Positions 32,193-55,574 of a DNA stretch of 64,000 nucleotides are shown here, piece after piece. Each line of letters opens with the position of its first letter. Position 1 is the stretch's first letter. Origin of the DNA: an uncultured Thermoplasmata archaeon (lineage in GTDB: Archaea > Thermoplasmatota > Thermoplasmata > Halarchaeoplasmatales > Halarchaeoplasmataceae); assembly GCA_964585175.1 (NCBI GenBank), contig CAZPCW010000001.1:12314-76313 (forward strand). The letters are read 5' to 3'. Both the position numbers and the translations under genes were made by a program. The notes under the pieces were generated by a model, which worked only from the letters and a program-made list of their open reading frames with translations, searched no databases and was not told the DNA's origin.

Positions 32193-32194
32193 TT

Positions 32195-34327: not shown

Positions 34328-34702
34328 TTATTCCATATATTTCCAATATTCCGAGATCTTTTCTTTTATTTCTTCACTAGTTACTGGTTTCCGGATATAA
34401 TCTATAACGTACTTTTGAAGATCCTTTCTATTTTCAGCCGGTGAATCCTTTGCCGTGAGCATCGATATCACAATATTCTGCATGTCAAATCTGTCCGCGA
34501 TCCCTCGAACCGTCTCCCATCCGTCCATATCGGGCATCATCACGTCCATCAATATTATACCTTCAAAACCTTCGTCTAAAGTATCCAAACATTCTTTTCC
34601 GCTCTCTACCGTTATCACTTCTAAATCCTCGTCTTCCAATATCCTCTCTAAAGTATAGAGGAGGTGAGGATCATCATCCACGATCATGATTTTTCTATCC
34701 AT
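34328..34702 (-). CDS. Single-domain response regulator (REC)
   Basis: KIMIVDDDPHLL...GIILMDVMMPDMDGWETV...YIRKPV is a CheY-like receiver fold with the phospho-acceptor Asp in MDVMMP. Its stop is adjacent to the HK start. Confidence 0.8.
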   Translation of the reverse strand: MDRKIMIVDDDPHLLYTLERILEDEDLEVITVESGKECLDTLDEGFEGIILMDVMMPDMDGWETVRGIADRFDMQNIVISMLTAKDSPAENRKDLQKYVIDYIRKPVTSEEIKEKISEYWKYME

Positions 34703-36163
34703 CTAAAGCATCTCCTTCTGTTCTTTGGGCAGTTCTATACAGAAGACAGTCCCTTTTCCATCTTCAGATCTTTCTGCCCATATATTGCCATTGTGGTTTT
34801 CTATTATATATTTTGAGATTGGTAAACCCAAACCGGTGGATTCTAGTTTATGTTTAGTTTTTCCGGTAGTATAAAAGTACTTAAAGATATTCTCTAACTC
34901 TTCTTCTTCCAAATTTCCACCCGTATCTCGGAACTTGATGATAACCGAATCCTCTTTTTCCTCCGCACCGATAAACATTTTACCTTCTTTAGATAAATGT
35001 TCAAGAGAGTTTTTAGCTAAATTATCGAATACTTCAAAAAGACCCATCTTGTCAACTTCTATCCGGGTATCTAACTCGATTTCATTCCTAAATTCTATAT
35101 TCCACTTTTCTTCTATCTCATCCAAATTTCGCCCCTTGAAGTTCGACAACCAATCTTCAACAAGTTCTTTAACTTGAACAGATTGCAGACCCGTTTTTCT
35201 ACCGCTTTTACTGTATTCAGCTATCTTCAATATGTGTTCAAGCAATTCTTTCAGGTAAAGCGCATTTTTTTCACAGATTTCTAGGTCTTTTTGGATGATT
35301 TCATCGTCAAGCTTTTTGCCAACTTTGTCTTTCACCATAGGAATCAAATTGACCAATGGACTCACCGGTGTTTTGAGGTCATGACTCAATCTATGTATTA
35401 TATTTTCTCTCTCTTCTAAAAGATCTTTCAATCTTTGTTCAGCTTTTTTTCTTTCCGTCACGTCTTCCGCAAATCCTAAATATCGATCTTTCGATATTTT
35501 TACCGCATTTACTATCCAATACCCTTTAGACCCGCCTTTTCTTTTGTAAGGGAGTTCTATTTTCATCTTTCCTCTTTCGAGAAGTTTATCAAAAGACTCT
35601 TTCGCCTTCCCTCGAGCGTTAGAAGTAGTTATATCTGATATATTCATTTCTAGCATCTCTTTTTCTGAATATCCAGTCATCTCACAGGCGCTTTCATTGA
35701 TTTCGAGATAGTCACCCTTCGAATCGACTACGAAGACGCCGCTCGGTGCATTTTCTACATAACTTCGAAATTTTTCTTCACTTTTCTTTAATTCCTCCTC
35801 GGCTTTTTTTCTCTCAGTTATATCTCTAGCTACGCTCAGTACAACTTTTTCATCTTTGAATTTAATCAGTGAGGAATTTATTTCGACAGGTATCTTCCTT
35901 CCATCCTTTGTTTCGTGTTCAGCCTTAAAAGTGAGATGTCCTCTTTTCTTTATTTCCTCCAATCTCCCCTCTACCAAGGGTTTGCTCTCTTCAGAATCTA
36001 ATTCATAAGGCGTCATCTCCATAAATTCATCTCTACTGTATCCATATCTTTCTACGGCGGCTCTATTTACCTTTATGAATCCACCATCTAGATTATGGAC
36101 GAAAACGGCGTCCTTCATCCCGTCCAAGATATGTTCGTATTTTTTTTCATCATCAAAAGACAT
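34703..36163 (-). CDS. PAS/PAC sensor histidine kinase
   Basis: Two PAS-like segments (AVFVHNLDGGFIKVNRAAVERYGYSRDEF...; GVFVVDSKGDYLEINESACEMTGYSEKEM), H-box IIHRLSHDLKTPVSP, and HATPase_c G-boxes (FRDTGGNLEEEELENIF, TGLGLPISKYIIENHNGNIWAE). Confidence 0.8.
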   Translation of the reverse strand: MSFDDEKKYEHILDGMKDAVFVHNLDGGFIKVNRAAVERYGYSRDEFMEMTPYELDSEESKPLVEGRLEEIKKRGHLTFKAEHETKDGRKIPVEINSSLIKFKDEKVVLSVARDITERKKAEEELKKSEEKFRSYVENAPSGVFVVDSKGDYLEINESACEMTGYSEKEMLEMNISDITTSNARGKAKESFDKLLERGKMKIELPYKRKGGSKGYWIVNAVKISKDRYLGFAEDVTERKKAEQRLKDLLEERENIIHRLSHDLKTPVSPLVNLIPMVKDKVGKKLDDEIIQKDLEICEKNALYLKELLEHILKIAEYSKSGRKTGLQSVQVKELVEDWLSNFKGRNLDEIEEKWNIEFRNEIELDTRIEVDKMGLFEVFDNLAKNSLEHLSKEGKMFIGAEEKEDSVIIKFRDTGGNLEEEELENIFKYFYTTGKTKHKLESTGLGLPISKYIIENHNGNIWAERSEDGKGTVFCIELPKEQKEML

Positions 36164-36302
36164 GATTAGCTTCCCCCGGCCTTTAATTCTTTATCTCTAC
36201 TCTTCTTTATAAAGGTAACTTTTTCATAAACAGGGGTTAGTAAATTTCAGTTTCTGAAAAGTTACAGGAACTTTTTTTTAGTTTCTCTCTTATGACCGTT
36301 TA

Positions 36303-38873
36303 ATGAGTTCCTTGGACGAGTTGATCTCAAATCTTGGCCGATTCTGGAAAAGAAAAAATGCTTTCCAAGAACTAGTAAAGAAAGGAAAGAAAGATCCAGA
36401 AGAGGTTGTTCCTAAACTCCTGAGAAGATTAGAAAGTAATGGCGGTAAGGTTGAGAAGAGAATCAAAAAAGTGTATGAAGAAATAGCGAAGGATATCGAT
36501 CTTGTTCCCATACTCTACAGTGTTCCAACTGTTGAGAATCTATGGACTTTTACAGAAAGTGATAATTCTATTTCCTGCGTATGTGCAGGGGAATTGGATG
36601 ATGATAATATCATGGCGGTTGGGTCTAGATCGGGAACAGTCTACATCTTGGATAAGGAAGGAGAGGAGAAGTGGAAAAAAGAGGATATAACAAGCGGTAT
36701 CAGCAGTCTCTTGGTAGATGAACTTGGAGACAAAAAGGTCGTTATAGCAGGATCGGGAAAGGCTTTCGGCAGTTCAGAGGAAAATAACGTTTACGTATGG
36801 AGCGAAAAGGGGGGATCTATTTGGACTGGAATTCAACCAGAATCTTGGATCACCGATTTAAAGACCGGGAGATTGAAGGGGAGGAATGTTGTAGTAGCGG
36901 GATGCGGAGGTTTGGAGGTCAGGTCCACCAATCTGATCGTATGGGATGAAGAAGGAAATCTCTTATGGGCTAGAGATGAACCAAATTCATGGATAAGCGG
37001 AGTAAGGATCACGGAACTAAATGGAAAAAAAGCCGTTATAGGTAGTTCGGGAGATAACAATATTTACGGGTGGGACGCTACTGGAAGTTTGGTATGGGAG
37101 GGGACGGAGTCAGAAGAATCTTTAGTCGGTCTAACAGTAGGCGATTTAGGAGGAAAAGAGGGTATTATAAGCATATCTTCAAATGTTTATGCATGGGACA
37201 AGAAAAAAAATCTCTTGTGGAAGAGTACTCATCCCGATTCTTGGCTCAGATGTGTTGATCTTGGTGACTTCAATGGTAAAAAGATGATAGTCGCAGGTTC
37301 AGAAGAAGGAATCGTGTACGGATGGGATGGAAAAGGTGATCTTGTGTTCAAAGACGAATCCCTAAACGGTGAGATCAATACGATCAAGATCGGAGAGATC
37401 GACGGGAAAAATGTCATAGTCGCCGGAACGAAAGTTGGCAGCCTTTACATTTGGAAAGAAGAAAGCTCTTTTCCTTCGGTATCTAACGTACCAAGAGACG
37501 CCATAAATGAGATCGCTTTTGGAAATTTTGAAGATCAAAATGTCATGATTTCAGGATCTGAAGATAAAAAAGTCTATGTCTTCAGGTATGAACTTACAAC
37601 TTTAGATGATCTTATTTCAAATACTGAAGAAGTAATACCAGTTCCCGATCTGAAAAGAAAATATAAAAAATTGAAAAAATCGGTAGATACCGATACGCCG
37701 GGTAAAGACAAAGAGATATACAATAGATTTCTCAAGCTCGGCGAAAAGATCAAAAATAGACAGGACAAAGGAGATGAGATAATAAGTGACATGAAGACCA
37801 TACAGGAGCACATCGAGAAGTTTAGAGATAAAGGAATAGATACAAGCGGTTTAACAGATAGATTTGAAAGATCAAAAATATATCTGAAAGATGGAAAGAT
37901 TAGGAATTGTGAAAATTATCTTGACGATCTATTGAAGGATTTATCCGATATCCAGAAAAGATTAGACAAGAAGAAAGAAAAAAACAAAAAGATAAGGAAT
38001 TGGATAGAAAAACTTGAAGTAGATATCGACACTGAGTCGATCCCAAAAGAGGCTATAGAGAATCTTGAACCGATCTATTCCAAATATGAAGAGATCTTAA
38101 AAGAACTCATAATAGAGGAAAATATAGATGAATTAAGAGAAAAGATACAGAAATTTGACAAAGTAACCGATAAGTACCATGAAGTGTCGGCCCAACATCG
38201 TAATGCTTTCAAAGTTTCAAAAAATTTAAACGAATTCGTGACTGAAAGATTGAAAAACCTGAAATCCGATCGTCAAAAACTGAAAAGATTGAAGCGTAAA
38301 AAAGAACTAGCTTTGAAAAATATACAGGACTCTACAAGCAGTGTCATCCTACAGTCACGATCACAGAAAACGTGGATCTCACCTGATGACCTATTAAATA
38401 GGATTAGAGAAATAGAAGATAAACTAAAAAATACTTTAGAAGATTTAATGTTGGATATAGTAAAAAACACTGTGGATATAAAAATGAAGATAGGATACGA
38501 AAACCAAGAATTCTTCATTCCAAAAGGCTATCCCTCAAAAGAAAAAGTAAATTTTGGATTGAGAAAGATTCGAGAAGAAATAAAGGAGATAGATGACGAG
38601 TCTTTAGAGAAAAGTATAGATTTCAATAAATTGAACCAAAAAATCGGCAATTCCGATCTAAAAACCTCTTCAAAGTTGATGAATGATATCGCTCATGAGA
38701 TATTTAGATACAAGGCTATTCTTAGTTTAGAAGAAACTCTGAAAAGTGAAGGAAACAGTAAAAGTTTGTATGAAAATTTTGAAATTCCAGAGGACTTTAA
38801 AACTAATATTCTAGCAAGGATAAAAAGAAAGAAAAAAGAAGTGAAAGCGAAAATGATCGAAATCCAAAAATAG
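36303..38873 (+). CDS. Beta-propeller (PQQ/WD-like repeats) protein with a long C-terminal Lys/Glu-rich coiled coil
   Basis: The N-terminal 430 aa or so is tandem 40-aa blades with conserved (V/I)YxWD...G.LxW and interleaved G(K/R)xVVIAGS (NVYVWSEKGGSIW, LIVWDEEGNLLW, NIYGWDATGSLVW, VYAWDKKKNLLW, IVYGWDGKGDLVF). The C-terminal 420 aa is K/E/I-rich with heptad character. It sits between the HK operon and the cheF paralogs. Confidence 0.5.
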   Translation: MSSLDELISNLGRFWKRKNAFQELVKKGKKDPEEVVPKLLRRLESNGGKVEKRIKKVYEEIAKDIDLVPILYSVPTVENLWTFTESDNSISCVCAGELDDDNIMAVGSRSGTVYILDKEGEEKWKKEDITSGISSLLVDELGDKKVVIAGSGKAFGSSEENNVYVWSEKGGSIWTGIQPESWITDLKTGRLKGRNVVVAGCGGLEVRSTNLIVWDEEGNLLWARDEPNSWISGVRITELNGKKAVIGSSGDNNIYGWDATGSLVWEGTESEESLVGLTVGDLGGKEGIISISSNVYAWDKKKNLLWKSTHPDSWLRCVDLGDFNGKKMIVAGSEEGIVYGWDGKGDLVFKDESLNGEINTIKIGEIDGKNVIVAGTKVGSLYIWKEESSFPSVSNVPRDAINEIAFGNFEDQNVMISGSEDKKVYVFRYELTTLDDLISNTEEVIPVPDLKRKYKKLKKSVDTDTPGKDKEIYNRFLKLGEKIKNRQDKGDEIISDMKTIQEHIEKFRDKGIDTSGLTDRFERSKIYLKDGKIRNCENYLDDLLKDLSDIQKRLDKKKEKNKKIRNWIEKLEVDIDTESIPKEAIENLEPIYSKYEEILKELIIEENIDELREKIQKFDKVTDKYHEVSAQHRNAFKVSKNLNEFVTERLKNLKSDRQKLKRLKRKKELALKNIQDSTSSVILQSRSQKTWISPDDLLNRIREIEDKLKNTLEDLMLDIVKNTVDIKMKIGYENQEFFIPKGYPSKEKVNFGLRKIREEIKEIDDESLEKSIDFNKLNQKIGNSDLKTSSKLMNDIAHEIFRYKAILSLEETLKSEGNSKSLYENFEIPEDFKTNILARIKRKKKEVKAKMIEIQK

Positions 38874-38956
38874 ATTATGAATATCTAATCGTTGGGATTA
38901 AATAGTAAATGAATCATGATATATATTGTAATTGATAGATGATGAGGTATAACTAG

Positions 38957-39826
38957 ATGGGAAAACAAAACGTACTGTATAACCAAGTAGAAAAGGCGAT
39001 AATACCCGCCGCAGAAGGTGATCGATACTTTAGAAATAAAGACTGGATCAAAACAACTGTTGCAGTAACTGGAGAATATCTAGTCTATAAAAATTCGGAA
39101 GGCGAAGGTTCGATTCCATTGAATGAAATCTACTATATGGATAGAAAAGTGGGCTACTCGAAAGCTCAAGGGGGAGCTGTTCTCAATTTCAATTATAAGC
39201 AGAATGGAGAAACTTATATGGGGTTGATAAAGACGTCCCATAAAGATTACTTGAAGAGAACTATACTTATTGCAACTATTTCGAATATTCCCATCTATTT
39301 TATTTCTCCCTACCAGAGCGGAGGAAGGATTCATACCGATAAAGAATGGAAAAAAGGAATTTTTCAGGTGACTAAGAACAAGGTCATAATTAAATCTCCA
39401 AACGGTTCGGTGGTTAATGAAATACCCGAGAGAAAAATATTCGGTGAAAGTGAGGATAAAATTAAGGGATACGATGCCATAAAGATCAGATACGAGAAAG
39501 ATGACGAGGAATTAGCTGATCTGATGTTCTCGCCGGAAGTTTCATTGGCTATACTGAGCGATTTCTTTTCTGAAGTTCTGATGAAGAAAAAGGGTAAAAA
39601 AAGAAAACTTTCAGAAGATGAAAAAGAAATCATGATGGCTATCCAGACGGGGATCAATTCTTCCACCGAAATAGCCGAATTGATGGAGATGGATCACGAA
39701 GATGTATTAAACTCTATAGACACGCTAAAGGATAAGAACGTGATAAATATAGTCGGAAGAGAAAAAATAGTCGAGTTAAGTTCAGAAGGAAAACAGGCTT
39801 TAGATGATTCAGGCGAATCGATGTGA
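38957..39826 (+). CDS. CheF-like protein (DUF439-like), paralog B
   Basis: Same family as 32745 and 39880. Directly upstream of cheW-cheR and facing cheA-cheB. Confidence 0.55.
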   Translation: MGKQNVLYNQVEKAIIPAAEGDRYFRNKDWIKTTVAVTGEYLVYKNSEGEGSIPLNEIYYMDRKVGYSKAQGGAVLNFNYKQNGETYMGLIKTSHKDYLKRTILIATISNIPIYFISPYQSGGRIHTDKEWKKGIFQVTKNKVIIKSPNGSVVNEIPERKIFGESEDKIKGYDAIKIRYEKDDEELADLMFSPEVSLAILSDFFSEVLMKKKGKKRKLSEDEKEIMMAIQTGINSSTEIAELMEMDHEDVLNSIDTLKDKNVINIVGREKIVELSSEGKQALDDSGESM

Positions 39827-39879
39827 GATTATATTTATGAAAAGTTTCATTATGAATACCAAAATGAAGAGGGAAAAAA

Positions 39880-40743
39880 ATGGCTCAAGATCAATTGTAT
39901 AACAATGTTGACGAAGCGATAATACCAGCTGGACAAGGAGGAAAGATCAAGGGGAATTTAAGCTGGGAGAAGACAAGGATAGTGATCACCAGTAAATACT
40001 TGATATACAAAGGGATGAATTCTGAGGGTTACATACCACTCAACAATATATTTAATATGGATAAAAAATTAGATTTTCAAAAAGGAAAGGGAAAAAATAT
40101 ACTTAACTTCTTTTATACAAAAGACGAAAAAAACTATTTCGGTCTGATCAGATCTAATCAGAAGAGTTATCTAAAAAGGAGTGTTTTGGTCGCATCGATC
40201 TCGAGTATACCCATCTACTACATATCTCCTTATCGGGTTGGGGGAAGGATTAACACTAGTAAAGAATGGGAACGAGGTATTTTGGAAATAAATCCAAGAT
40301 CTATGAAGATAAAAAATGTGGGAGAAGAATTAGTAAACGAATTATCCGAGGATGATATATATAGAATAGATTCTGACAAGGTAAAAGGTCATGATGCGGT
40401 AAAGATAAGCTACGAGAAAAACGAAGAAGAATTCACCGATCTCCTTTATTCTCCGGGTATTTCTCTCTCGATCCTTTACGATTATTTCGAAGAAATTTTG
40501 ATAGGAAAAGACGTTACGGATATAACTATCTCTGAACTGGAAAAGGAGATGATCTTGGCGATCGAAAGTGGTATCAACTCGTCTAAAGAACTCTCGGATC
40601 TGATCGAAAGTGACCATGAAAAGGTCTTAAATAGCTTGAAAAGATTGAAGGAAAAAGGGTTAATAGAAGAGATAGGCATAGATAAGATTGTTGATCTCAC
40701 ATCTCAAGGTAAAAAGAAGATAGGCGATTCGATAGAAAGGTGA
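39880..40743 (+). CDS. CheF-like protein (DUF439-like), paralog C
   Basis: About 45% identical to paralog B along the whole length. C-terminal wHTH-like block EKEMILAIESGINSSKELSDLIESDHEKVLNSLKRLKEKGLI. Confidence 0.55.
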   Translation: MAQDQLYNNVDEAIIPAGQGGKIKGNLSWEKTRIVITSKYLIYKGMNSEGYIPLNNIFNMDKKLDFQKGKGKNILNFFYTKDEKNYFGLIRSNQKSYLKRSVLVASISSIPIYYISPYRVGGRINTSKEWERGILEINPRSMKIKNVGEELVNELSEDDIYRIDSDKVKGHDAVKISYEKNEEEFTDLLYSPGISLSILYDYFEEILIGKDVTDITISELEKEMILAIESGINSSKELSDLIESDHEKVLNSLKRLKEKGLIEEIGIDKIVDLTSQGKKKIGDSIER

Positions 40744-40747
40744 TCTG

Positions 40748-41293
40748 ATGGAAAGAGAAGATATGGATATAGACGACACTAAAAAAGAATTAGAAGAAGA
40801 AGTCAAAGAAAAGATAGAGGGGATGAAAGGAATCGATAGAGAAAATGAACTCCTCTTTACTATTTTTGAACTAAGCGGCGAAGATTATGGCGTCTCAGTG
40901 GACGAGATGGATGAAATAGTTAAGGATGTAGATACTTTCAATATTCCCGGTGCTCCAGATTATGTGTTGGGTGCTGCAAAATTAAGAGGAGATGTGGTTC
41001 CCGTTATTGATCTTAAAAAAGTTCTAGGAATAGGTGAAACCAGAGAAGGATGGAAGGAGGTACTATTAATAACTCATGAGGATGAAAAATACGCCATGCC
41101 AGTAGATAAGTTAAAAGATATGATCACACCCGAAAGAGAACAGTTAGTCGATCCCACTTCTATCACGAATTTAAGGGACAAGATGCTCAAATGGATAATC
41201 AGCCTAGAGGATAATAAGAGTATACGAGTAATAGACATGGATGAATTGATAAGCAAAAAAACTGAAGACCTTGATATTAAAGAGAAAAGTTAG
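40748..41293 (+). CDS. cheW: Chemotaxis coupling protein CheW
   Basis: LLFTIFELSGEDYGVSVDEMDEIVKDVDTFNIPGAPDYVLGAAKLRGDVVPVIDLKKVLG is a CheW-like domain. 181 aa. Confidence 0.85.
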   Translation: MEREDMDIDDTKKELEEEVKEKIEGMKGIDRENELLFTIFELSGEDYGVSVDEMDEIVKDVDTFNIPGAPDYVLGAAKLRGDVVPVIDLKKVLGIGETREGWKEVLLITHEDEKYAMPVDKLKDMITPEREQLVDPTSITNLRDKMLKWIISLEDNKSIRVIDMDELISKKTEDLDIKEKS

Positions 41294-41308
41294 GGCGGGT
41301 AGAATAGG

Positions 41309-42130
41309 ATGCCAGAACTAGAAGAAAATACTGATTCTAAGGGATTTAAAAGACTTAGAAAAGAAGTATCCCGAAAAATAGGCGTAGATTATGATAATTA
41401 CTCTAAGCGGCACTTGAGAAGACGTTTTCACGCAAGGATGAGAGTCGTAGAAACTCCAAAATTTGAGGGATATCTCGACTATATCAAAAAACACGAAGAA
41501 GAGATCGAAGAGCTTAGAGATCTCCTTACGGTGAACGTGACTAGATTTAAAAGAGATGAGGAAGTCTGGGAAATTATAGAGGATGAACTTATACCCGAAT
41601 TAATCGAAAATAAGGGTACAGGTGTTTTAGATAGTTTTGATGTCTGGTCAGCTGGATGTGCGACCGGAGAAGAACCATATTCGCTTGCTATCAGTTATTT
41701 AAAAAATAATCCTCCTGCCAATCTCTCTTTTTCCGTCACCGCTACAGATTTGGATAATGAAGCCCTAGATTTTGCGAGAAACGGCGAATATCCCAGTAAA
41801 TCGATCAAAAACTTATCCGAATCAGAAAAAAGAAAGTTTTTTAAAGATAAAAAGGGCGGTTGGCAGGTAAAAGGCAAGGTCAAAGAATTGGTGGAGTTCA
41901 AGGAAAAAGACATCTTCAAAACCTCCTTTAAAAAGAAATTCGATCTTATACTCTGTAGAAATCTGATGATTTACTTCAACAACGAGGCTAAAAGCAAATT
42001 GATGGAAAGGCTCGTAGAAAGTTTAAGCAAAGGAGGCTATCTTGTTATAGGTATGTCTGAAAATTTAAGATCACCAGCTAAGGACAAGGTTGAATCCTAC
42101 AATTTAAAAAGAAGGGTGTTTAAGAGGTAG
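41309..42130 (+). CDS. cheR: Chemotaxis protein methyltransferase CheR
   Basis: SAM-binding core FDVWSAGCATGEEPYSLAIS, a CheR N-terminal helical domain, and LILCRNLMIYF. Confidence 0.85.
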   Translation: MPELEENTDSKGFKRLRKEVSRKIGVDYDNYSKRHLRRRFHARMRVVETPKFEGYLDYIKKHEEEIEELRDLLTVNVTRFKRDEEVWEIIEDELIPELIENKGTGVLDSFDVWSAGCATGEEPYSLAISYLKNNPPANLSFSVTATDLDNEALDFARNGEYPSKSIKNLSESEKRKFFKDKKGGWQVKGKVKELVEFKEKDIFKTSFKKKFDLILCRNLMIYFNNEAKSKLMERLVESLSKGGYLVIGMSENLRSPAKDKVESYNLKRRVFKR

Positions 42131-44096
42131 TCTTTATCCAGTGAAGCGTGTCGAGTATCATCGCTATAGTACCGTCTCCAAGTATCGTTGCCCCCATGAA
42201 TCCTCCGAGACCCTGAAGATGTTCCGGCAGCGGTTTTATAACTATCTCCTTTTCGGTTAGGACGTCGTCTATAACTAGACCGGCGGTCTTTCCTTCTTTG
42301 GAAACGATCGAGACTTTTAGCTTTTCTTTTTCCTCTTTTATAGAACTCGCAGGATATCCTTCAAACTCCTCTTGCAGATAGATAAGAGGTAAATATTCAT
42401 CCCTGATTTTCACGAAATCATTTCCTTTGATTTTTTCTATCTGCTCCAAATCGACCTGAGCAGTTTCAACTACGTCTTCTAAAGGTACAGCGTAAGTACC
42501 GTCTCCGACCTTAATCAGGAATGCCTGAACTATTGCCACCGAAGGAGGTAATGTCAATCTGATAGTTGTACCTTCATCGATCTCTGACTCAACGTTTACT
42601 TCTCCACCAAGAGAATCCATGGTTTTCTTAACCACTTCCATGCCAACTCCTCTTCCAGAGACTTTAGTAACCTCGTCTTTGGTGGAGAAATGGGAATTGA
42701 ATATAAACATGTATAAATCTTCATCTGATATTTCTTCAGCTTCTTCTTCGTCTATAAGATCATTATCGATGGCCTTTTCCTTGATCTTCTCTTTATTCAA
42801 TCCTCGACCGTCATCGCTTACTTCTATTACAACGTTCTCCTCTTTTTGGGTCGCGGCTAGTTTGATCTTACCTTTTTTTGGCTTTCCCTTCTTTTCTCTT
42901 TCTTCTACAGGCTCAATACCATGATCTATAGCGTTCCTCAAAAGATGAACTAAAGGATCGGTTATTCGGTCGAGAATGGTTCTATCCAGCTCTATTTCTT
43001 CACCCTGCATTTCGAAATCGACCTTTTTATTATTCTCCTTAGCAAGATCTCTCACCATCCTCGGGAAGCGTCTAAAGACGGTCTTGACTTCCGTCATCTT
43101 CATGTCTAGGACCGATTCTCTCAACTCGCTGGATATCCTGTCTATTCTCCCGGTCACATTAGAAAGTCTATCCGATTCCAAAGAGCGAGAAAGATCTTCC
43201 AAAGTACCTTTTGAAATAACTAATTCACTTACTAGGTTCATTATATGTTCGATATCTTCTAGGTCTACCTTTATCTTGTCCGATGTCGAAATCTTTTTTT
43301 CCTTCTTTTTCTTTTTTTCCTTTTTTTCTTCGGTTTCTTCTTCCTTTTCTGGTTTTTCTACCCCCTTCTTTTGCTTTAGGAGACCTTCTCCAGCTCCTCT
43401 TCTTACTTCGATTGTTAACCCGGCTGTTTTATCTAAATCTTTTTCTTCTATCTCTTCTTCAGTCACGATATAAAACTGGTTATGCTGTGGATCTACTTCA
43501 TCAGGATCGGGATAGAACATTTCACATTCAAAATCTAACTTTTCTTGGACCTCCATGCCTCTAACAGCGGGCAGCTTTTCCTCTTGAGAAACTTCCAATA
43601 TACCTAAGGAGATCTCTTCCTCTGCTTTTTCTTTTAATTTCTCTTGCACTTCGTCTGGGACATCTATCTCTTCTATTTCTTCAGACTCTTCGACTTCAAC
43701 CTCTTCTTCAGTGCTCCCCTCTTCCTTTGTAACTTCACCTCCTTCTATTAGCTCGTTGAGCTCATTTACCAAATGGCCATAATCTTCGTCTTCTCCGCTA
43801 GCGAGTATTTCTATGGTGTCAACACATTCAAAAAGAAGATCGAAAAGCTCTTCCTCTACCTTACCCCCTTCGCCCTTCAACTTATCAAAAAGTTCCTCCA
43901 TCCTATGACTTATCTTCTGGATACCGTCATAACCCATTGTGCCCGCCATACCCTTCAAAGTATGGCTGGCTCTATAGATTTCTTCTATCAATTCGATATC
44001 CTTCGGATCATCTTCCAATGCCAAAAGATTCTCATTCATCTTTTCAATTTGTTCTCTTGTCTCTTCTTCAAACATTTCTTGATATTCTTCACTCAT
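42120..44096 (-). CDS. cheA: Chemotaxis histidine kinase CheA
   Basis: Hpt P1 with H-box ASHTLKGMAGTMG, a dimerisation domain, HATPase_c (VIEVSDDGRGLNKEKI...STKDEVTKVSGRGVGMEVVKK) and a C-terminal CheW-like P5 (DGTYAVPLEDVVE...AGLVIDDVLTEKEIVIKPL). Confidence 0.9.
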   Translation of the reverse strand: MSEEYQEMFEEETREQIEKMNENLLALEDDPKDIELIEEIYRASHTLKGMAGTMGYDGIQKISHRMEELFDKLKGEGGKVEEELFDLLFECVDTIEILASGEDEDYGHLVNELNELIEGGEVTKEEGSTEEEVEVEESEEIEEIDVPDEVQEKLKEKAEEEISLGILEVSQEEKLPAVRGMEVQEKLDFECEMFYPDPDEVDPQHNQFYIVTEEEIEEKDLDKTAGLTIEVRRGAGEGLLKQKKGVEKPEKEEETEEKKEKKKKKEKKISTSDKIKVDLEDIEHIMNLVSELVISKGTLEDLSRSLESDRLSNVTGRIDRISSELRESVLDMKMTEVKTVFRRFPRMVRDLAKENNKKVDFEMQGEEIELDRTILDRITDPLVHLLRNAIDHGIEPVEEREKKGKPKKGKIKLAATQKEENVVIEVSDDGRGLNKEKIKEKAIDNDLIDEEEAEEISDEDLYMFIFNSHFSTKDEVTKVSGRGVGMEVVKKTMDSLGGEVNVESEIDEGTTIRLTLPPSVAIVQAFLIKVGDGTYAVPLEDVVETAQVDLEQIEKIKGNDFVKIRDEYLPLIYLQEEFEGYPASSIKEEKEKLKVSIVSKEGKTAGLVIDDVLTEKEIVIKPLPEHLQGLGGFMGATILGDGTIAMILDTLHWIKTTS

Positions 44097-45145
44097 TATT
44101 TCTCCTCCATAAACATATCAACCAATTTCTTTCCAATTTCAGAAGGTGTTCCTTCAAAATCAGGAGTTGTTTTATTTTTCGCAGATTTAGGCATCCCATA
44201 TACAACGGAACTCTCTTCATCTTGGAGGGCAAGAAAACCATCGTTATCTTTTACTATTTTAGCTCCGGTAGCTCCATCCTTTCCCATTCCAGTCAAAACT
44301 ACCCCAATAACTTTATCCCGATATACTTCGGCGGCGGATTGGAAAAGATAATCCGCAGAGGGTCTAACGCCGTGTAATTTGGGTTTTTTCTTGAGGACTA
44401 TAGATTTCTCTTCATTCCATTCTCTTACCATTCCATGATAGTCCGAAGGGATTATGTAGATATTATTAGGTTCGATATTATCATGATCTTTAGCCTCCCT
44501 AACTGGGAGCTCAAGTTTTGAATTCAATGTAGAAGCTAGATATTCGGTAAAATCAGGGGGCATATGCTGGACTACAACGATAGGAACAGGGAAATTAGAG
44601 GGTAGATTAGATAGTAAGCTGTCTAAAGCTCTCGTCCCGCCTGTGGATGAAGCTATAGTGATAATATTATCTTTAAATTTTTCTGGGACGAATTCCTTTT
44701 CTATCGGCTTTCCCTTTTCCAACTCCAAAGATTCCATATCGGTCTTTCCAGCATTGATAACTTTTTGAGTGATCTCGTCTGATTTCTTCCTGATATCCAT
44801 CGATAAAGAACCAGATGTCTTTGGGATGAAATCCACAGCTCCCGCTTCTAGAGCCTTCACTGACATCCCAGTCTTCTTATCTTCCATCGCGGAAACTATA
44901 ACGACTGGTGTAGGATTGTCGGACATGATTTTTTTTACGGCGGTGAGCCCGTCCATCACGGGCATCTCGATGTCCATTAATATGACATCAGGATCTTTCT
45001 CTCTGTTAAGTTCTATAGCTTCTTCACCGTTACCACCAGTGCCTACTACTTCTATCTGTTCATTCTCTTCAAGTATGTCTGTTAATATGGTAACCATGAA
45101 ATTCGAATCATCTACTACGACAGCGCTGATTTTACTTGAAGTCAT
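44096..45145 (-). CDS. cheB: Chemotaxis methylesterase CheB (REC plus methylesterase)
   Basis: N-terminal receiver (VVVDDSNFMV...DVILMDIEMPVMDGL) and C-terminal esterase (IASSTGGTRALDSLLSNLP, VVVQHMPPDF, LTGMGKDGATG). Its stop overlaps the cheA start. Confidence 0.9.
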   Translation of the reverse strand: MTSSKISAVVVDDSNFMVTILTDILEENEQIEVVGTGGNGEEAIELNREKDPDVILMDIEMPVMDGLTAVKKIMSDNPTPVVIVSAMEDKKTGMSVKALEAGAVDFIPKTSGSLSMDIRKKSDEITQKVINAGKTDMESLELEKGKPIEKEFVPEKFKDNIITIASSTGGTRALDSLLSNLPSNFPVPIVVVQHMPPDFTEYLASTLNSKLELPVREAKDHDNIEPNNIYIIPSDYHGMVREWNEEKSIVLKKKPKLHGVRPSADYLFQSAAEVYRDKVIGVVLTGMGKDGATGAKIVKDNDGFLALQDEESSVVYGMPKSAKNKTTPDFEGTPSEIGKKLVDMFMEEK

Positions 45146-45312
45146 TTATCGAATTATGCTTAGGATGATATTTATAGTTTCTCAAGATTAACAAAATTTG
45201 CTATTAGTGATAGTGTCAGACGAATAGATAAATCAATAGAGGGTCAACTTGGGCATCCAGAGTGTTGTTATTACCCAATCGAAAAATATATAAGTAACTT
45301 ACTCGTTGTTTT

Positions 45313-45330
45313 GTCCGACAAAGTGTCAGA
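45313..45330 (+). promoter_or_regulatory. Tandem GTCnGAC sites (GTCCGAC-AAAGT-GTCAGAC) between a TATA-like box and the ATG at 45341
   Basis: The same architecture (GTCGGAC-GAAGT-GTCCGAC, 61420-61438, minus strand) lies between a TTTAAATAA box and the ATG at 61398. A third single site GTGTCAGACGAA is at 45214-45225. Confidence 0.45.
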
Positions 45331-45340
45331 CGATGGTGGT

Positions 45341-45490
45341 ATGATGGATGAAAGAAATGTAGACGAACTGATAAAGAAAATGCACGAAAAAGAAGGAAAC
45401 ACGGTCGAGTATCTGAAAGAATCCTATAGTGAAGAAGAACTTGCCAATTTGAATAAGAAAATATCTGGAGAATTACATCTCAAAAACTAA
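45341..45490 (+). CDS. Possible small acidic protein (49 aa) between cheB and cheY
   Basis: The ATG at 45341 is preceded by a TATA-like AAAATATATAAG (45284-45295) and by the tandem GTCnGAC motif. The ORF MMDERNVDELIKKMHEKEGNTVEYLKESYSEEELANLNKKISGELHLKN has the acidic composition typical of this genome. It is below the ORF-track size cutoff. Confidence 0.3.
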   Translation: MMDERNVDELIKKMHEKEGNTVEYLKESYSEEELANLNKKISGELHLKN

Positions 45491-45545
45491 AAAAATCAGG
45501 TGTTGTTTTAATAGTACAACACTCTCTTATCTTTTTATTATTATA

Positions 45546-45908
45546 TTATTCCTCAAGGACTTTTCCTATCTCTTCTAAAACACTATCCTTTTTAAACGGC
45601 TTAACTATATAACCATCGGCTCCTCTCTTTATTGCTTCCGTGACTTTCTCATGCTGGTCCACAGACGTACACATGATCACTTTCTGAGTTTCGTCATGGT
45701 TTTTTATCTCCGATAATGCCTCAAATCCGTCCATCTCGGGCATAACGACGTCGAGAGTCACGAGATCGGGATCTAGTTCTTTTACCTTTTCGACAGCCTC
45801 CTTTCCATTCTCAGCCTCGTCAGCTACGTTGTATTTAACTGAGAGGATCTTTCTAAGCATCTTTCTCATGAACTTAGTATCATCCACGATCAACACTCTT
45901 TTAGCCAT
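45546..45908 (-). CDS. cheY: Chemotaxis response regulator CheY
   Basis: KRVLIVDDTKFMRKMLRKIL...DLVTLDVVMPEMDGFEALSEIK...ADGYIVKPF; 120 aa single REC. Confidence 0.85.
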   Translation of the reverse strand: MAKRVLIVDDTKFMRKMLRKILSVKYNVADEAENGKEAVEKVKELDPDLVTLDVVMPEMDGFEALSEIKNHDETQKVIMCTSVDQHEKVTEAIKRGADGYIVKPFKKDSVLEEIGKVLEE

Positions 45909-46019
45909 TGTAAAATGTGAGGGTGATTAGATATATATAATTTTTCGGATTTCTTTTGATTTTTTGATAGGAAACTACGAAGATATCTCTATCTACCGAT
46001 CATCATTTAGATTTGTCAA

Positions 46020-46600
46020 CTACCTCCACCTGAAGGAGGAGGCTTGTAATATGGCAGGACCAGACCACAGAGACAATTTAATTATCAGTGTACTCCACTC
46101 TATCCCGCAAAACGGGAACGGAGAGGCACATGGCTTCACGTTCGCTTCAACGCACCTGATTCAAGGGCCAGTTGACCGTGACTCACACACGCAGAGAACG
46201 AAACATGGTCAGTCGTTTCATCGCTCCTCATGGAACGGCTTTTGCCCAGCGTGCGGGTTTGTATCTCATCCACAGTGGCGTAACGCAACCGAAGCGGTTT
46301 TCTCTCCTTCAAGAAGAGTGCCTTTTATGGTGCAGCCTACTGTACTCGGATACAGTGTATTAACATCATCTTCCCCATATTTAAAGCATGACTACGGGAG
46401 TCACTGTTATGAAATAATTCCAGTGGAAGAGGAATTTTTAATTCCTCGTCGCTAGTGAGGATGCGAGGACTTTGTCCTCTTTTCCCTCAACTAGTGAGTT
46501 TCGGGAATGAAAGGATGTTAATCCTGCAACATCCGCAGTGCTAACGAGGAATGAAAGGATGTTTATCCTGCACATGAAGGAAGGAGTTTCCTGCCTGTTT
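46020..46600. other. GC-rich (about 50%) non-acidic island, probably non-coding. Candidate structured RNA or a foreign DNA remnant; the ORF-track protein 45964..46455 is probably spurious.
   Basis: Local GC is well above the 38-40% of flanking genes. The predicted 163-aa ORF is H/S/R/C-rich and neutral to basic, unlike every other protein here. There are multiple local stem-loops (CCUCCACC-UGAA-GGAGGAGG, GAAAC-N10-GUUUC, GCG-UAA-CGC, GAGGAC-UUU-GUCCUC) and a tandem 26-nt direct repeat GGAATGAAAGGATGTT(A/T)ATCCTGCA at 46505 and 46545, each able to form alternative hairpins. Confidence 0.35.
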
Positions 46601-47189
46601 AGCCTTGATGAAAATCCGGGAGTTTGATGATCAGGAAGTATATCAGAAATATCGTAATAGCTACGAATAAAAGAGAAAAACCAAACAGGACCATTATATC
46701 GGTCTCTTCGCTGAAATTGAAGGAACCCGCCCAACTTATTAACATCGCCAATAATGAAATCACAAACGTAAGAGAAGAATTTTTCAACAAAGAATGATTC
46801 CATTCTTTTCTATAGTCCTCTAATATTTCATTTTCTTTTCCTTCTGAACATCTAAGGATGCTATTTATTCTCATCAGGTTATTTATGTACAGTAGTGCAG
46901 CATAAAATAATACTAGTGCCCCCACTAAAATTGTCACATTTAGCAGAGTAAAGGGGAAATCTAAATTACTTAAATAAAATGCAGAGCCCATAATTCCTAC
47001 TCCTAAATTGACTAAAATTTTTCTTTTATCGAAAAATCCTACAGCCGATAGTGCACCTCCTATGATGGCTCCATACCATAATAGATTAGGATAAGAAAAT
47101 ACAGCTGATAGTACTATCAAAACGAATATAACGAAAAAAGCCCTAATTTGGGCATATCTTTTTCCAGTAAATTGACTTGTCCATTGCAA
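46599..47189 (-). CDS. Hypothetical polytopic membrane protein
   Basis: 196 aa with 5-6 hydrophobic helices (FFVIFVLIVLSAVF, GAIIGGALSAVGFF, LLNVTILVGALVLFYAALLYI, FVISLLAMLISWAG, LFGFSLLFVAITIFLIYFLII). Confidence 0.5.
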   Translation of the reverse strand: MQWTSQFTGKRYAQIRAFFVIFVLIVLSAVFSYPNLLWYGAIIGGALSAVGFFDKRKILVNLGVGIMGSAFYLSNLDFPFTLLNVTILVGALVLFYAALLYINNLMRINSILRCSEGKENEILEDYRKEWNHSLLKNSSLTFVISLLAMLISWAGSFNFSEETDIMVLFGFSLLFVAITIFLIYFLIIKLPDFHQG

Positions 47190-52619: not shown

Positions 52620-53402
52620 TTAAGTCTGACTCTGGTTCATCGGTTCATCTGGTGTTACCGTCAACCATCCCGCATGATCGCCCACACGAACCTTAACTTC
52701 ATAAACTTCCCTAATATTATCTTTGTTGACAACATCCATGCCACCTGAGACATAGACCTCCCCTTCTTTTAGCATAACTATTCTATCACTGTATCTGATG
52801 GCCATATTAAGATCGTGAATGGCAATGATCGACGAAATATCTTCCTTAGTCTGTTCCTTTATTATATTCAATACTTCTAATTGATGTTTTAGATCAAGAT
52901 TACTCGTTGGCTCGTCTAATAACAATATTTCTGGTTGTTGTGCTAACGCCCTAGCTACAAAAACTTTCTGTCTCTGCCCTCCGCTCAATTCGTCGATATC
53001 TCTCATAGCAAAATCGGTTAATTCCATCTTTTTGATCAGGTCAGATACTATCTTCTTGTCCTTTTCACCGGGTTTCCAAGAGATGTATGGTTTTCTTCCC
53101 ATGAGTATCGTCTCGAATACCGTAGAAGGAAAATTAACATTCTCTATCTGTGGGACATATCCTAATTTTCTCGCTTTCTCGTTCAGAGTGTAATCCGTTA
53201 TACTTTTCCCATCTATCCTCACAGTGCCCTTTTTGGGTTTGTGAAAATTTCCTAAACATTTCAGCAAAGTACTCTTTCCTGAGCCATTGGGGCCTACTAA
53301 AGCTAAGATCTCACCCTCCTTTATTTCTATATCTATGTCCTTTAATACCCTAGGCTCGTTATTGTATGAAAAATGCACTCCATTAGCTTCCAATCGACTC
53401 AC
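52620..53402 (-). CDS. ABC transporter ATP-binding protein (FecE/BtuD iron-siderophore/cobalamin type)
   Basis: Walker A motif GPNGSGKSTLLK, ABC signature LSGGQRQKVFVARAL and Walker B motif ILLLDEPTSNLD. Confidence 0.85.
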   Translation of the reverse strand: MSRLEANGVHFSYNNEPRVLKDIDIEIKEGEILALVGPNGSGKSTLLKCLGNFHKPKKGTVRIDGKSITDYTLNEKARKLGYVPQIENVNFPSTVFETILMGRKPYISWKPGEKDKKIVSDLIKKMELTDFAMRDIDELSGGQRQKVFVARALAQQPEILLLDEPTSNLDLKHQLEVLNIIKEQTKEDISSIIAIHDLNMAIRYSDRIVMLKEGEVYVSGGMDVVNKDNIREVYEVKVRVGDHAGWLTVTPDEPMNQSQT

Positions 53403-54475
53403 CAGTAAGACCTCCCGTTTATTAATACATATATGAAAAGCGGCGCACCCATGAACGAAGTCAGTATACCCACAGGTAGTATCTCTGGAGATATTACCGT
53501 TCTAGCTACTGTATCACAGGCTAATAAAAACGCGCCTCCAAAGAAAACAGAAGCAGGGATCAGATATCTTTCGTCTCCACCGATAATCCTTCTGATTATA
53601 TGAGGAACGACCAAGCCTACAAAACTGATTATCCCAAAAAAGGATACGATTATTGCTGTGACCAGGGAAGATAATACCATGCCTACGATCCTTGTTCTTT
53701 CGATGTCAACACCAAGACTTTTAGCAGTTTCATCTCCACTGTCAAGAGCGTTGAGATCCCAGCTTTTCTTTATGAAATATATAGAGATCGGGATAACCAC
53801 AGCCGCTAAGATCATTATCCAATGCCAGTTACCTAGTATCTTGCTTATATCACCGAATCTCCATGCTATGAAGGCAGCCAGATTAGTCTCGTCGGTGGAA
53901 AAATATTGTAGGGAAAGTATACCCGCGTTGAAAAGAGAACCTAATGCTACGCCTGTTAAAATCAATGTTGCCGGTGAAGTATCGGTCAATCTGATAAGTA
54001 GTAAAAGGACAAGGGTGGCCACCATCGCAAAAGTAAAAGCTGAAACGGTTGTCATATAGGGATTATGGATGGTTATGGCATCGGCACCGCTGCTGTAAGT
54101 ACCTCCCGCTCCTAGGTATAGTATAGAAAACGCAGCCCCAAAAGCTGCTGCCGAGGATATACCCATCGTTGAGGGAGACCCTAAAGGATTCCTCAATATG
54201 CTCTGCATGGTTGCCCCAGCCACAGACAAACCGAGGCCCGCTAATATAGCTCCCGCTACTCTAGGCATCCTGATACGCCATATTATACCTATATCGACCT
54301 CATCACCTTTTCCTAAAAGTGCGTAAAAAACCACATCTAAAGGTTTGTTTGATGGGCCAATAGAAACGGCTATAACTACGAGTATGAATAATAAAAGGAT
54401 AGATGTTAAGATGAACATTACTTTTTTTGATATATGTTCATCATAGCTCTTCAAAATATCTGGTTTATTGGACAT
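53399..54475 (-). CDS. ABC transporter permease, FecCD/BtuC family
   Basis: 358 aa, about 9-10 TM segments, FecCD-type composition. It overlaps the ATPase gene by 4 nt. Confidence 0.75.
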   Translation of the reverse strand: MSNKPDILKSYDEHISKKVMFILTSILLLFILVVIAVSIGPSNKPLDVVFYALLGKGDEVDIGIIWRIRMPRVAGAILAGLGLSVAGATMQSILRNPLGSPSTMGISSAAAFGAAFSILYLGAGGTYSSGADAITIHNPYMTTVSAFTFAMVATLVLLLLIRLTDTSPATLILTGVALGSLFNAGILSLQYFSTDETNLAAFIAWRFGDISKILGNWHWIMILAAVVIPISIYFIKKSWDLNALDSGDETAKSLGVDIERTRIVGMVLSSLVTAIIVSFFGIISFVGLVVPHIIRRIIGGDERYLIPASVFFGGAFLLACDTVARTVISPEILPVGILTSFMGAPLFIYVLINGRSYW

Positions 54476-54479
54476 GTTA

Positions 54480-55574
54480 TTATCTCTTTAGATCAACTTT
54501 CTTGAATCCGCCAAAGTCCTCTTCCATTTCGTCATAAACACCTTCTCCGACAAGCTCTTTGTATATCTGATCTGCTTTTTCTTCAGCATCAACGTCGTTG
54601 AACCTCTCTGGAAATAGAACTTTTCCTATGTAATACGAATCTGCAAGTATAGTTCCATAGTTAGCTGTATAGTAGTTGAAGGGCATAACCGCATAGGTTT
54701 CATTATTTTTAACAGCATCTATACTTTTGTAAAGATCGTTGTTTTCAATGTCATCTTTTAAAAGTTCATATCCCCCTTCATCGATGAATAATCTCTCCGG
54801 GTTCCAATCAACAATCTTTTCAGGATCTACCATGGCATGCTCAGTGGTTAGATCATCCGCAACGTTCTTTGCATTTACGAACTCGAACGGAGAATAGTCA
54901 GGTAATGTAGATTTTATTCCATGTGGACCTCTTTGTCCTATTCCTCCGACGTAACATTTACTTTTTTCTTCTTCGGGTATCTCTTCTGTTCTTTGATTTA
55001 GGTCGGAAATTGTACCCTCGATAAAATCCTGGATTTCTTGAGCCCTTTCAGTCTTATCCAAGACTTTTCCGATAGTATCCAAAGCACGGTAAAACATATC
55101 CCGGTTATCGTCTAGATCGCCATATCTTAATGCGATCACAGGTATTCCAGTCTGTTCTTGAAGATCTTCAGCTTTACCTGCTTCTGCATAGGTCCAAAAG
55201 ATCACATCCGGATCAAGGTCCATTATCAGTTCAGAATTTCCCCCATGTTGTGGACCGATACTTGTTTCGTCCTGAAGTTCAGGATGAGCCATGATATAAG
55301 GCCTCAAACCATCATCTTTTTCAAAATTCTCAACACCGCTCACCATATCAGTGGCGTTCATGTAGACTAAAAGACGCAGCGCACCGGCTTCGATCCCCAC
55401 GACTTCATCTATATCTTTAGGAACTTCGACTTCTCTCCCCGTCATGTCTGTTATCGTTCTAGTTTCTCCATCACTCTCTGCACTTAAATTAACACAACCA
55501 CTGCTGAAAACTGAGAAGAGAATCAATCCTACAAAAAGAATAGAAATTTTTTTATCCACCTTATTCACCATCAC
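54480..55574 (-). CDS. ABC transporter substrate-binding lipoprotein (cluster A, FecB/BtuF-like)
   Basis: Signal peptide with a lipobox-like FSSGC, and a two-lobe periplasmic binding protein layout with an acidic mature protein. Confidence 0.65.
   Translation of the reverse strand: MMVNKVDKKISILFVGLILFSVFSSGCVNLSAESDGETRTITDMTGREVEVPKDIDEVVGIEAGALRLLVYMNATDMVSGVENFEKDDGLRPYIMAHPELQDETSIGPQHGGNSELIMDLDPDVIFWTYAEAGKAEDLQEQTGIPVIALRYGDLDDNRDMFYRALDTIGKVLDKTERAQEIQDFIEGTISDLNQRTEEIPEEEKSKCYVGGIGQRGPHGIKSTLPDYSPFEFVNAKNVADDLTTEHAMVDPEKIVDWNPERLFIDEGGYELLKDDIENNDLYKSIDAVKNNETYAVMPFNYYTANYGTILADSYYIGKVLFPERFNDVDAEEKADQIYKELVGEGVYDEMEEDFGGFKKVDLKR

Follow-up and report, generated by a model that had tools for sequence, protein, structure and literature searches.

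We analysed a 64,000-nucleotide (nt) stretch of an uncultured Thermoplasmata archaeon (contig CAZPCW010000001.1 of assembly GCA_964585175.1; hereafter the window), in which a G+C-rich island lies between cheY and a gene for a membrane protein. The ends, copies and relatives of this island strongly support its interpretation as a protein-less element of the IS200/IS605 superfamily, of the type described as PATE. The genes in its surroundings are ordinary chromosomal ones, none of which encodes a transposase: an archaeal chemotaxis cluster at 31671-45908 (CheF-arch, CheW, CheR, CheA of 658 aa, CheB and CheY), a flagellin-like open reading frame (ORF; 23443-24651), FtsZ (4958-6052) and a FecCD/periplasmic-binding ABC system (53399-55574). 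An earlier sequence-only reading had delimited the island at 46020-46600, within 5-8 nt of its true edges; conservation in every relative begins sharply at G46015 and ends with ...TTGA at 46608, and the true unit is 46015-46604 plus the TTGA at 46605-46608 (Table 1). No second copy of the element occurs within the window.

The compositional contrast that first set the island apart was borne out, its G+C content being 47.5% over 46020-46600 against a window mean of 39.4%. The value is 49.7% for 46015-46400 and 43.1% for 46401-46609, and only 27.4% for the 106-nt spacer that separates the element from cheY. In 300-nt windows the island peaks at 0.51-0.52, about 2.8 standard deviations above the mean; several coding stretches, for example 14550-14700 and 20400-20800, reach the same level, so G+C content alone is not unique. 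The impression of a structure-rich region also stood, with minimum free energy z-scores for 46005-46600 of -3.2 on the plus strand and -4.2 on the minus strand; single-sequence z-scores are modest (-1.3 to -3.4) and discriminate the strands weakly. The G+C richness fits a structured RNA, and, as a speculation, could stem from high-G+C haloarchaea of the same habitat.

Table 1 Features of the element and its immediate surroundings, in window coordinates
Feature	Position	Strand	Remarks
Whole protein-less IS200/IS605-type (PATE-like) element	46015..46604	-	Right end (RE) at 46015, left end (LE) at 46604
Target / transposon-adjacent motif (putative)	46605..46608	-	TTGA on plus strand, TCAA on top strand
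RE terminal octamer GTCAACTA on plus strand; top-strand 3' end ...UAGUUGAC	46015..46022	-	Invariant in all copies
RE subterminal palindrome CCTCCACCTGAAGGAGGAGG	46023..46042	-	Hairpin, 8 nt from end
LE terminal segment: TGAAGGAAGGAG, the LE palindrome arm duplicating the RE arm, then 18-nt spacer TTTCCTGCCTGTTTAGCC	46575..46604	-	
Nested small repeat copy 1, 78 nt	46451..46528	.	In loop of LE palindrome; 3' end is the first direct repeat
Nested small repeat copy 2, 38-nt 'ends-only' GCAGTGCTAACGAGGAATGAAAGGATGTTTATCCTGCA	46535..46572	.	Contains the second direct repeat
Covariation-supported RNA core, 10 helices common to Thermoplasmatota and Halobacteria copies	46042..46267	-	
Upstream extension of core	46268..46400	-	Thermoplasmatota copies only; closed by 19-bp long-range helix
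Internal GUCAACU (top strand) in hairpin loop	46170..46176	-	Complements 3'-terminal GUUGAC
Archaeal TATA-like box CTTTAAATAT	46377..46386	-	Preceded by CGAnCAAA in relatives; alignment A5; weaker in L049 (CTTACAT)
Flank beyond RE, AAAUCUAAAUGAUGAUCGGU on minus strand	45995..46014	-	Differs in every copy
Spurious ORF, 163 aa (134 aa from ATG at 46051)	45964..46455	+	Not coding

With the minus strand of the window taken as the transposon top strand, the order is TCAA, LE ... RE-GTTGAC, flank. All copies open with GTCAAC and close with ...CCTGCCTGTnTTAAGGTGA (...TAGCCTTGA in the window copy). An NTGA end (TCAN on the top strand) was found at seven of seven Thermoplasmatota sites, two haloarchaeal sites (L079, L080; L numbers denote loci fetched for comparison) and two viral sites that were read, the insertions being those of the window, L005/L010 (which have one right flank), L007/L009 (a second right flank), L006, L049, L062, L033, L079, L080, L026 and L027. 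In most other copies the motif is GTGA (TCAC). The flanks are otherwise unrelated and lack a target-site duplication; the four nucleotides at 46605-46608 are provisionally assigned to the target rather than to the element, no empty site having been seen.

Terminal inverted repeats are absent; similar palindromes lie on the same strand near both ends. The RE palindrome reads CCTC(C/T)TCC-TTCA-GGTGGAGG on the top strand, and short copies keep an intact LE palindrome, CCTCTTCC-TTCA-GGGAGAGG in L049, which is nearly identical to it and stands 18-19 nt from the end; nested repeats interrupt the LE palindrome of the window copy. The spacing is asymmetric, with 18-19 nt between palindrome and terminus on the LE side but 8 nt on the RE side, and recurs in the viral loci L026 and L027; for IS608 and for Haloquadratum PATEs, too, the cleavage site has been described as more distant from the palindrome at the LE than from that at the RE (PMC3119063). 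An A-to-T change in L009 restores a pair in the RE hairpin. The RE palindrome belongs to a 34-nt motif common to HEARO, IsrB and TnpB elements, and the same terminus opens bona fide HEARO RNAs (L071, L076), IsrB elements (L038, L069) and antisense-TnpB elements (L039, L063). Host ORFs repeatedly terminate inside the element: DUF8156 runs 6 codons into the RE (L002:5618-5636), a 168-aa ORF of L049 ends with ..QLPPPEGRGL-stop (L049:517-551), and in the window the LE supplies the final Gly codon and the stop codon of the membrane protein (46599-46608).

Contigs of sister metagenome-assembled genomes (MAGs) were found by exact-protein look-ups of the neighbouring genes. The contig on the cheY side stops inside the island at 46312, and that on the membrane-gene side (L003) stops at 46555, 54 nt inside the right boundary, as expected for an assembly graph with k=55 that breaks off at the border of a repeat. 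L002 and L004 have the island beside the same membrane gene, and on the left they carry DUF8156 and HTH_20 instead, the switch falling exactly at 46015. Ten single-nucleotide differences separate them from the window, all within the first 233 nt (46040-46247), and the rest is identical; over 46015-46400 the identity to L002, a second copy in the same species, is 97.4%. The join across the element in the window could be recombinant between two copies or an assembly chimera over a 590-nt repeat, and the membrane-gene side may natively have had a partner other than the cheY-side junction. On the assumption that TTGA is the target, the L002 arrangement without the element would read ...CAA AAG AAA GGT TGA, which would give DUF8156 a natural stop (ending QKKG-stop) that overlaps the convergent membrane gene; the predicted empty site is ...CAAAAGAAAGG-TTGA-TGAAAATCC....

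The element is present in several copies per genome. At least two copies with differing flanks occur per genome in halophilic Thermoplasmatota MAGs, at least two flank sets were found in each of two populations, and in one soda-lake population two left and two right flanks appear in three combinations. A scan of species-representative genomes for GTCAACTACCTCCNCCTNAA yielded L033, L049 and L062, of which L049 and L062 (Great Salt Lake) are two further true relatives in halophilic Thermoplasmatota MAGs. MAG D3M20_1 holds three copies (L033, L049): beside the full copy L049, L033:4896-4945 (Thermoplasmata archaeon D3M20_1) is a 50-nt form that consists of the ends only, GTCAACTACCTCCACCTGAAGGAAGAGG fused to CCTCCTGCCTGTATTAAGGTGA, and looks like a deletion between copies of a 13-nt repeat, TGAAGGAAGAGGC, found in each of the two palindromes. 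The element decays to an ends-only form, which matches the repeat-mediated 52-bp 'terminal-only' PATEs of Haloquadratum (PMC3119063, Dyall-Smith et al.).

Relatives extend beyond the Thermoplasmatota. A blastn search of plasmid records revealed homologues of 46041-46198 with 76-77% identity in Salinigranum marinum and Natrinema gelatinilyticum, both protein-less with the same ends and a TTGA target, and in Natrinema the element occupies 14 places in one replicon. Transfer between two archaeal classes would be consistent with this distribution. Two viral contigs (IMG/VR) carry protein-less elements of 556 nt (L026:10987-11542) and 268 nt (L027:5199-5466) between structural genes. Both elements share the RE motif, finish in ATGA and possess a matching palindrome at the LE with a spacer of 19-20 nt; a 722-aa portal-like ORF of L027 receives its last 12 codons (..SQLPPPKGTGL-stop) from the element, and in L026 the ATG of the next gene overlaps the terminal ATGA. 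Other searches were sparse or empty: the metagenome scan returned two contigs, both from one soda-lake sample; an exact-match search for an internal 22-mer among species-representative genomes, and scans of viral contigs with core and LE motifs, gave 0 matches; the phage collection gave no match; and an nhmmer core profile detected no remote homologue in about 80 fetched loci.

The direct repeat that the sequence-only reading had described near the LE is real, although it is 25 nt rather than 26 nt long and lies 3 nt from the reported positions: 46504-46528 and 46548-46572 are identical at 24 of 25 positions, 44 nt start to start, and shuffles predict 0 such matches in the window. As for its proposed stems, AGGAT/ATCCT is present in both copies, whereas AACATCC (46528-46534) lies between them and can pair with either GGATGTT. 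A switch between alternative folds is not what the repeats represent, as they are the ends of two nested small repeats, separated by ACATCC, whose copy number is 0-2 among relatives: the unit is absent in L005, L009 and L049, occurs once in L062 and is expanded in L006. The nested insert opens with GCAGTGCTAACGAGGATG and closes with GAAAGGATG..TCCTGCA. Copy 1 has imperfect terminal inverted repeats, GCAGTGCTAAC and GTAGTCCTGC, and two hairpins with compensatory changes among three lineages (GAGGAC/GTCCTC versus GGGGAT/ATCCCC versus AAGGGAAT/ATTCCCTT). A similar short unit, AGGATTTAACGATGAAAGGATGCTAATCCTG, stands alone in an unrelated intergenic region (L006:3686-3735); within L006:3658-3735 a direct duplication of 19 nt, CTCATCTTAAAACCTCCTT, flanks this unit, and after it comes CCTGTTTTGA, similar to the LE tail of the element. 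In its features the nested unit is like the SMR-A small mobile repeats of Haloquadratum (PMC3119063), being short, with imperfect inverted termini, located in a PATE palindrome, variable in copy number and also found alone elsewhere; it is unlike them in length (78 or 38 nt versus ~110 bp) and in the 19-nt duplication at the solitary copy, as SMR-A makes none.

The only long ORF of the island, on the plus strand, is not coding. Its substitutions are spread evenly over the codon positions (for example 13/11/12, 15/15/16, 17/17/14 and 11/13/15), and its nucleotide identity (~88%) exceeds its amino-acid identity (74-77%). Database 'homologues' of the ORF form three clusters only, all of them other copies of the element, and the confident protein homologue that would have spoken for a gene was not found among them; no Pfam family matched the ORF or any minus frame, and a protein search with a minus-strand ORF gave 0 matches. 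The sequence-only reading was correct in calling the predicted protein neutral against acidic neighbours (isoelectric point 6.8 versus 4.5-5.8 for cheA, cheB, cheY and DUF58), the adjacent membrane protein being at 8.0. As a separate observation, CPACGF, encoded on the plus strand at 46243-46260 within the ORF, equals zinc-finger residues 350-355 of ISHsi2 TnpB, possibly by chance; it lies on the strand opposite to that expected for tnpB and is absent from the haloarchaeal relatives.

Comparative alignment, which the sequence-only reading had named as one check on its structured-RNA idea, revealed conservation and covariation and supports a conserved fold on the minus (top) strand that ends at the RE. 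The fold spans ~230 nt and extends to ~340-385 nt in the Thermoplasmatota lineage. Alignment A6 comprises eight sequences over window positions 46042-46267 on the minus strand, with 57 pairs in 10 helices, of which 20 show compensatory change. Paired cells amount to 97.1%, compared with 86.7% after shuffling (0/500) and 36-52% when partners are slid, and the minus-strand pairs read on the plus strand fall to 84.6%. Consensus energy and structure conservation index (SCI) are -62.6 and 0.75 for the minus strand against -45.8 and 0.55 for the plus strand, and even the pairs optimised for the plus strand fit the minus strand better (92.8% versus 91.0%). A helix search that permitted G.U plus A.C pairs to be 'strand-neutral' was too permissive and was discarded. 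The Thermoplasmatota copies, 82.8-90% identical between lineages over 46015-46400, give the same direction: their minus-strand consensus fold of 109 pairs has 97.2% of cells paired versus 95.8% for plus, an energy of -114.8 versus -91.8 kcal/mol and 62 versus 34 one-sided pair-keeping changes, and the SCI agrees. With transposon ends intact and substitutions that keep the structure, the island is hardly the 'degraded' fragment of the sequence-only reading; that the region is foreign or mobile DNA is supported.

Since the fold lies on the minus strand, its RNA 3' end would abut the cheY-side flank, and a minus-strand fold that ends at the RE has the geometry of a TnpB guide (omega) RNA. For such RNAs the location of the guide relative to the RE is known (PMC10055086), and AAAUCUAAAUGAUGAUCGGU would be the guide segment if the RNA is of the TnpB type. 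The internal GUCAACU is kept in eight of eight sequences, a C-to-U change in L006 giving G.U on the minus strand; its GUCAAC with the 3' GUUGAC forms a candidate pseudoknot next to the guide, and the same GUCAAC/GUUGAC pairing constitutes helix P1 of HEARO on the opposite strand. An internal promoter may lie in the conserved motif CTTTAAAT (46377-46386); the RNA would then start near 46355, just before the closing helix.

At gathering score, Rfam matched nothing in the whole window or in the haloarchaeal relatives, and ARAGORN detected no tRNA or tmRNA. The sole notable sub-threshold match is HEARO on the plus strand at 46015-46204 (20.3 bits, E 0.08; 20.8 bits, E 0.04 in L062), set against a threshold of 83 bits and 88-111 bits for true members; the alignment spans GUCAACUA, the first hairpin, CUUG...CAAG and AGUUGACC, that is, the terminal domain only. 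A group I intron or IStron was rejected, as there was no Rfam intron match and the structured part lies at the RE, not the LE.

Family assignment drew on the termini. The first 34 nt recur in many bacteria and match the terminus of the Rfam-confirmed HEARO RNAs L071 and L076, from Vreelandella vilamensis; these RNAs, at L071:6663-6908(-), L071:7325-7555(+) and L076:7450-7695(-) with 88-111 bits, are without IscB and represent orphan omega RNAs in a halophilic bacterium, one of them preceding a pyrophosphatase-like gene. The same terminus accompanies a sense RRXRR (IsrB) protein in L038 and L069 (Poribacteria, Parcubacteria) and an antisense OrfB_IS605 (TnpB) gene that ends 41-90 nt away in L039 and L063 (Nitratiruptor, Streptomyces). 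The terminus of the haloarchaeal relatives (L079) matches the RE of ISHsi2 (L081, Haloarcula), in which tnpA and tnpB are antisense, that is, on the strand equivalent to the window minus (top) strand, and tnpB stops 5 nt short of the terminus; ISHsi2 opens with GTGAAC, not GTCAAC. According to Kapitonov et al. (PMC4810608), ISC elements start with 5'-GTCA, insert at GT-GA or N-ATGA (the hyphen marking the insertion point, as reported for ISC/IS605B targets) and have termini in common with antisense-TnpB elements; PATEs are the protein-less relatives of ISC elements. The NTGA ends described above agree with the reported targets. Meers et al. (PMC10055086) report that PATEs 'often encode omega RNAs', on which TnpB acts in trans. 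Matches to an 18-base terminal pattern in many Acidobacteriota MAGs were rejected: they fall in conserved sequence that codes for protein (..VNYLHLNHGKGFW..; ..F(F)E/H VNYLHLNHGKGFWTWFAD.Y..) that is unrelated to the element and occurs in L034, L035, L040, L043, L044, L046, L050, L051, L054, L056, L058, L064, L065, L073 and L074.

Comparison with known systems places the element close to the PATEs of Haloquadratum walsbyi (PMC3119063) and Geobacillus stearothermophilus (PMC10055086), which it resembles in lacking terminal inverted repeats, in similar palindromes that stand farther from the LE, in a 4-nt targeting sequence without duplication, in ends common with tnpB/iscB elements, in a ~50-nt ends-only form that arises by core deletion, in repeats within a near-terminal palindrome and in an omega-RNA-like non-coding RNA. 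It differs from them in its hosts, halophilic Thermoplasmatota (~39% G+C) plus two Halobacteria, and in a large, wholly non-coding RNA (~230 to 385 nt) without detectable relation to a tnpB 3' region or an Rfam omega-RNA family. With HEARO (RF02033; the IscB/IsrB omega RNA of ISC transposons, PMC4810608) it has in common the ~34-nt terminus GUCAACUACC, a UNAA-loop hairpin, GCUUG, a distal AGUUGAC that closes helix P1, the NTGA target and the existence of ORF-less orphan copies; it is unlike HEARO in its score (20 versus 83 bits), a 113-nt insertion in the second hairpin, the absence of the downstream helices and pseudoknot, the covariation that puts the fold on the opposite strand and the lack of an IscB/IsrB gene. 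The TnpB omega RNAs (reRNAs) and sotRNAs (RF02656, RF02657; PMC4615843, PMC12558985) are similar in lying on the top strand, with a scaffold that ends at the RE, a flank-derived 3' extension, a terminal hairpin and a possible pseudoknot by the guide, and the RE of ISHsi2 is closely related; they differ in that our element neither overlaps nor adjoins tnpB, belongs to neither sotRNA family and is longer than typical scaffolds.

On balance we favour, at somewhat better than even confidence, a PATE with ends of the ISC/HEARO and antisense-TnpB type that carries a TnpB-type omega RNA used by a trans-acting nuclease; the guide function of the fold, taken by itself, is about an even call. In the mechanism that we envisage, an internal TATA-like promoter near 46380 would drive transcription of the RNA, whose 3' part would run on into the cheY-side flank and provide the guide. 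Excision and insertion of the element at TCAA/TCAC sites would proceed through single-stranded DNA and would be the work of a Y1 (HUH) transposase, TnpA, in trans; a TnpB-like nuclease, likewise in trans and loaded with the RNA, would cut the emptied donor site (TCAA plus flank), and recombination after the donor cut would restore the element.

Several observations weigh against this proposal. Neither the window nor ~60 kb of related loci, searched with Pfam on some of the ORFs and with few tblastn queries, yielded a tnpA, tnpB or iscB gene, and no tnpB was found adjoining copies of the element. The sole exception in tblastn with TnpB, IsrB and TnpA queries against the window and the archaeal loci is a tnpB fragment (L080:3010-3333(-)), 62% identical to residues 307-406 of ISHsi2 TnpB, which lies directly left of a Natrinema copy, where one mobile element may have inserted into another. 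The scaffold is not homologous to the tnpB-overlapping region of ISHsi2, and no coding remnant is detectable on the minus strand, though TnpB guide RNAs normally overlap the tnpB 3' end; the haloarchaeal sotRNA families RF02656 and RF02657 gave no match (E<=10 in the window, E<=5 in L062). No empty site was recovered among the loci examined, and the nested repeats, which split the LE palindrome, may have crippled the mobility of the window copy. A wholly non-coding scaffold beside the RE is, moreover, what an IscB-type element would leave, but on the other strand.

That last point belongs to a reading in which the RNA is an orphan IscB/IsrB-type (HEARO-like) omega RNA on the plus strand, whose scaffold would begin at GUCAAC and whose 5' end would draw the guide from the flank next to cheY. 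Among the weak Rfam matches HEARO is the best one for the window as well as for L062, true HEARO has a spacing similar to CAAG-GGCC-AGUUGAC, some HEARO RNAs are orphans that lack IscB (L071, L076), and a wholly non-coding scaffold of 200-400 nt at this end is typical of IscB elements; upstream ORFs that run into the element in L002, L049 and L027 could allow read-through transcription, and a plus-strand hairpin followed by a T-run lies at 46300-46332. The strand tests, however, favour the minus strand at every scale (SCI 0.75 versus 0.55; 97.4% versus 91.0% paired; 49 versus 17 one-sided pair-preserving changes; 11 versus 38 broken cells), and the HEARO match is limited to a terminal domain that TnpB-type elements have as well, the downstream HEARO helices and pseudoknot being absent. 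No iscB/isrB ORF was found near any of 10 copies, and ISHsi2, the only coding element found with a closely related terminus in halophilic archaea, has tnpA and tnpB on the opposite strand. We regard the plus-strand RNA as quite unlikely. Somewhat less improbable, though still doubtful, is a PATE whose fold is not a nuclease guide and serves as cargo, as a domesticated regulatory or other structured RNA, or as a single-stranded DNA structure in transposition or replication. The scaffold has been seen so far only in protein-less elements of two archaeal classes and is unlike the known omega-RNA families, the loci searched yielded no nuclease gene, G.T wobble is tolerated in top-strand DNA hairpins too, so that the strand signal alone is not proof of RNA, and the nested repeats lie upstream of the putative promoter yet covary. 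Against this stand the position and strand of the fold, which are those of a TnpB guide RNA ending at the RE; its ten helices, which show compensatory change along more than 220 nt and far exceed the ~30-nt hairpins that TnpA needs; and the omega RNAs already documented in PATEs (PMC10055086).

The readings that do without a transposon fare worse. A G+C-rich, structured, intergenic segment in an A+T-rich genome might suggest RNase P, SRP or another housekeeping RNA, or a cis-regulatory leader of cheY, and the sequence-only reading had raised these possibilities; even at E<=10 on either strand there is no Rfam match to such an RNA, at least two copies with differing flanks occur per genome, and from lineage to lineage the adjacent genes are unrelated. 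Ends of the IS605 type and the occurrence in multiple copies refute this idea, and we give it virtually no weight. A decaying protein gene or a random acquired fragment, with the long plus-strand ORF as a remnant, is very unlikely: the 163-aa ORF and its six-of-six CPACGF match to ISHsi2 TnpB residues 350-355 are offset by the evenness of substitutions over codon positions, the lack of a Pfam match, the higher identity of nucleotides than of amino acids and the wrong strand of CPACGF, and structure-preserving substitutions show selection on the fold. It is conceivable, if improbable, that the ~230-nt fold represents a transposon-borne RNA family not catalogued before and common to halophilic Thermoplasmatota and Halobacteria. 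Rather than a conventional TnpB or IscB scaffold, it would be the guide of an unlinked, perhaps unrecognised effector or would have an autonomous role in self-processing, regulation or transposition control; the RNA would then spread between archaeal classes in hypersaline habitats.

The element type is one already known, whereas its RNA is absent from Rfam. For annotation of the genome, an odd G+C-rich, 'gene-less' island is explained as a transposon relic still under selection, which removes a false ORF, and the junction of cheY with the membrane gene is to be treated with caution, as it may be either a repeat-mediated chimera or a true rearrangement. For the study of RNA-guided nucleases the element is a compact system for tests: its ends are defined, its target is TCAA/TCAC and covariation supports its scaffold. 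It is also present in cultured haloarchaea, Natrinema gelatinilyticum and Salinigranum marinum, where it can be asked which trans-encoded nuclease, if any, uses the RNA.

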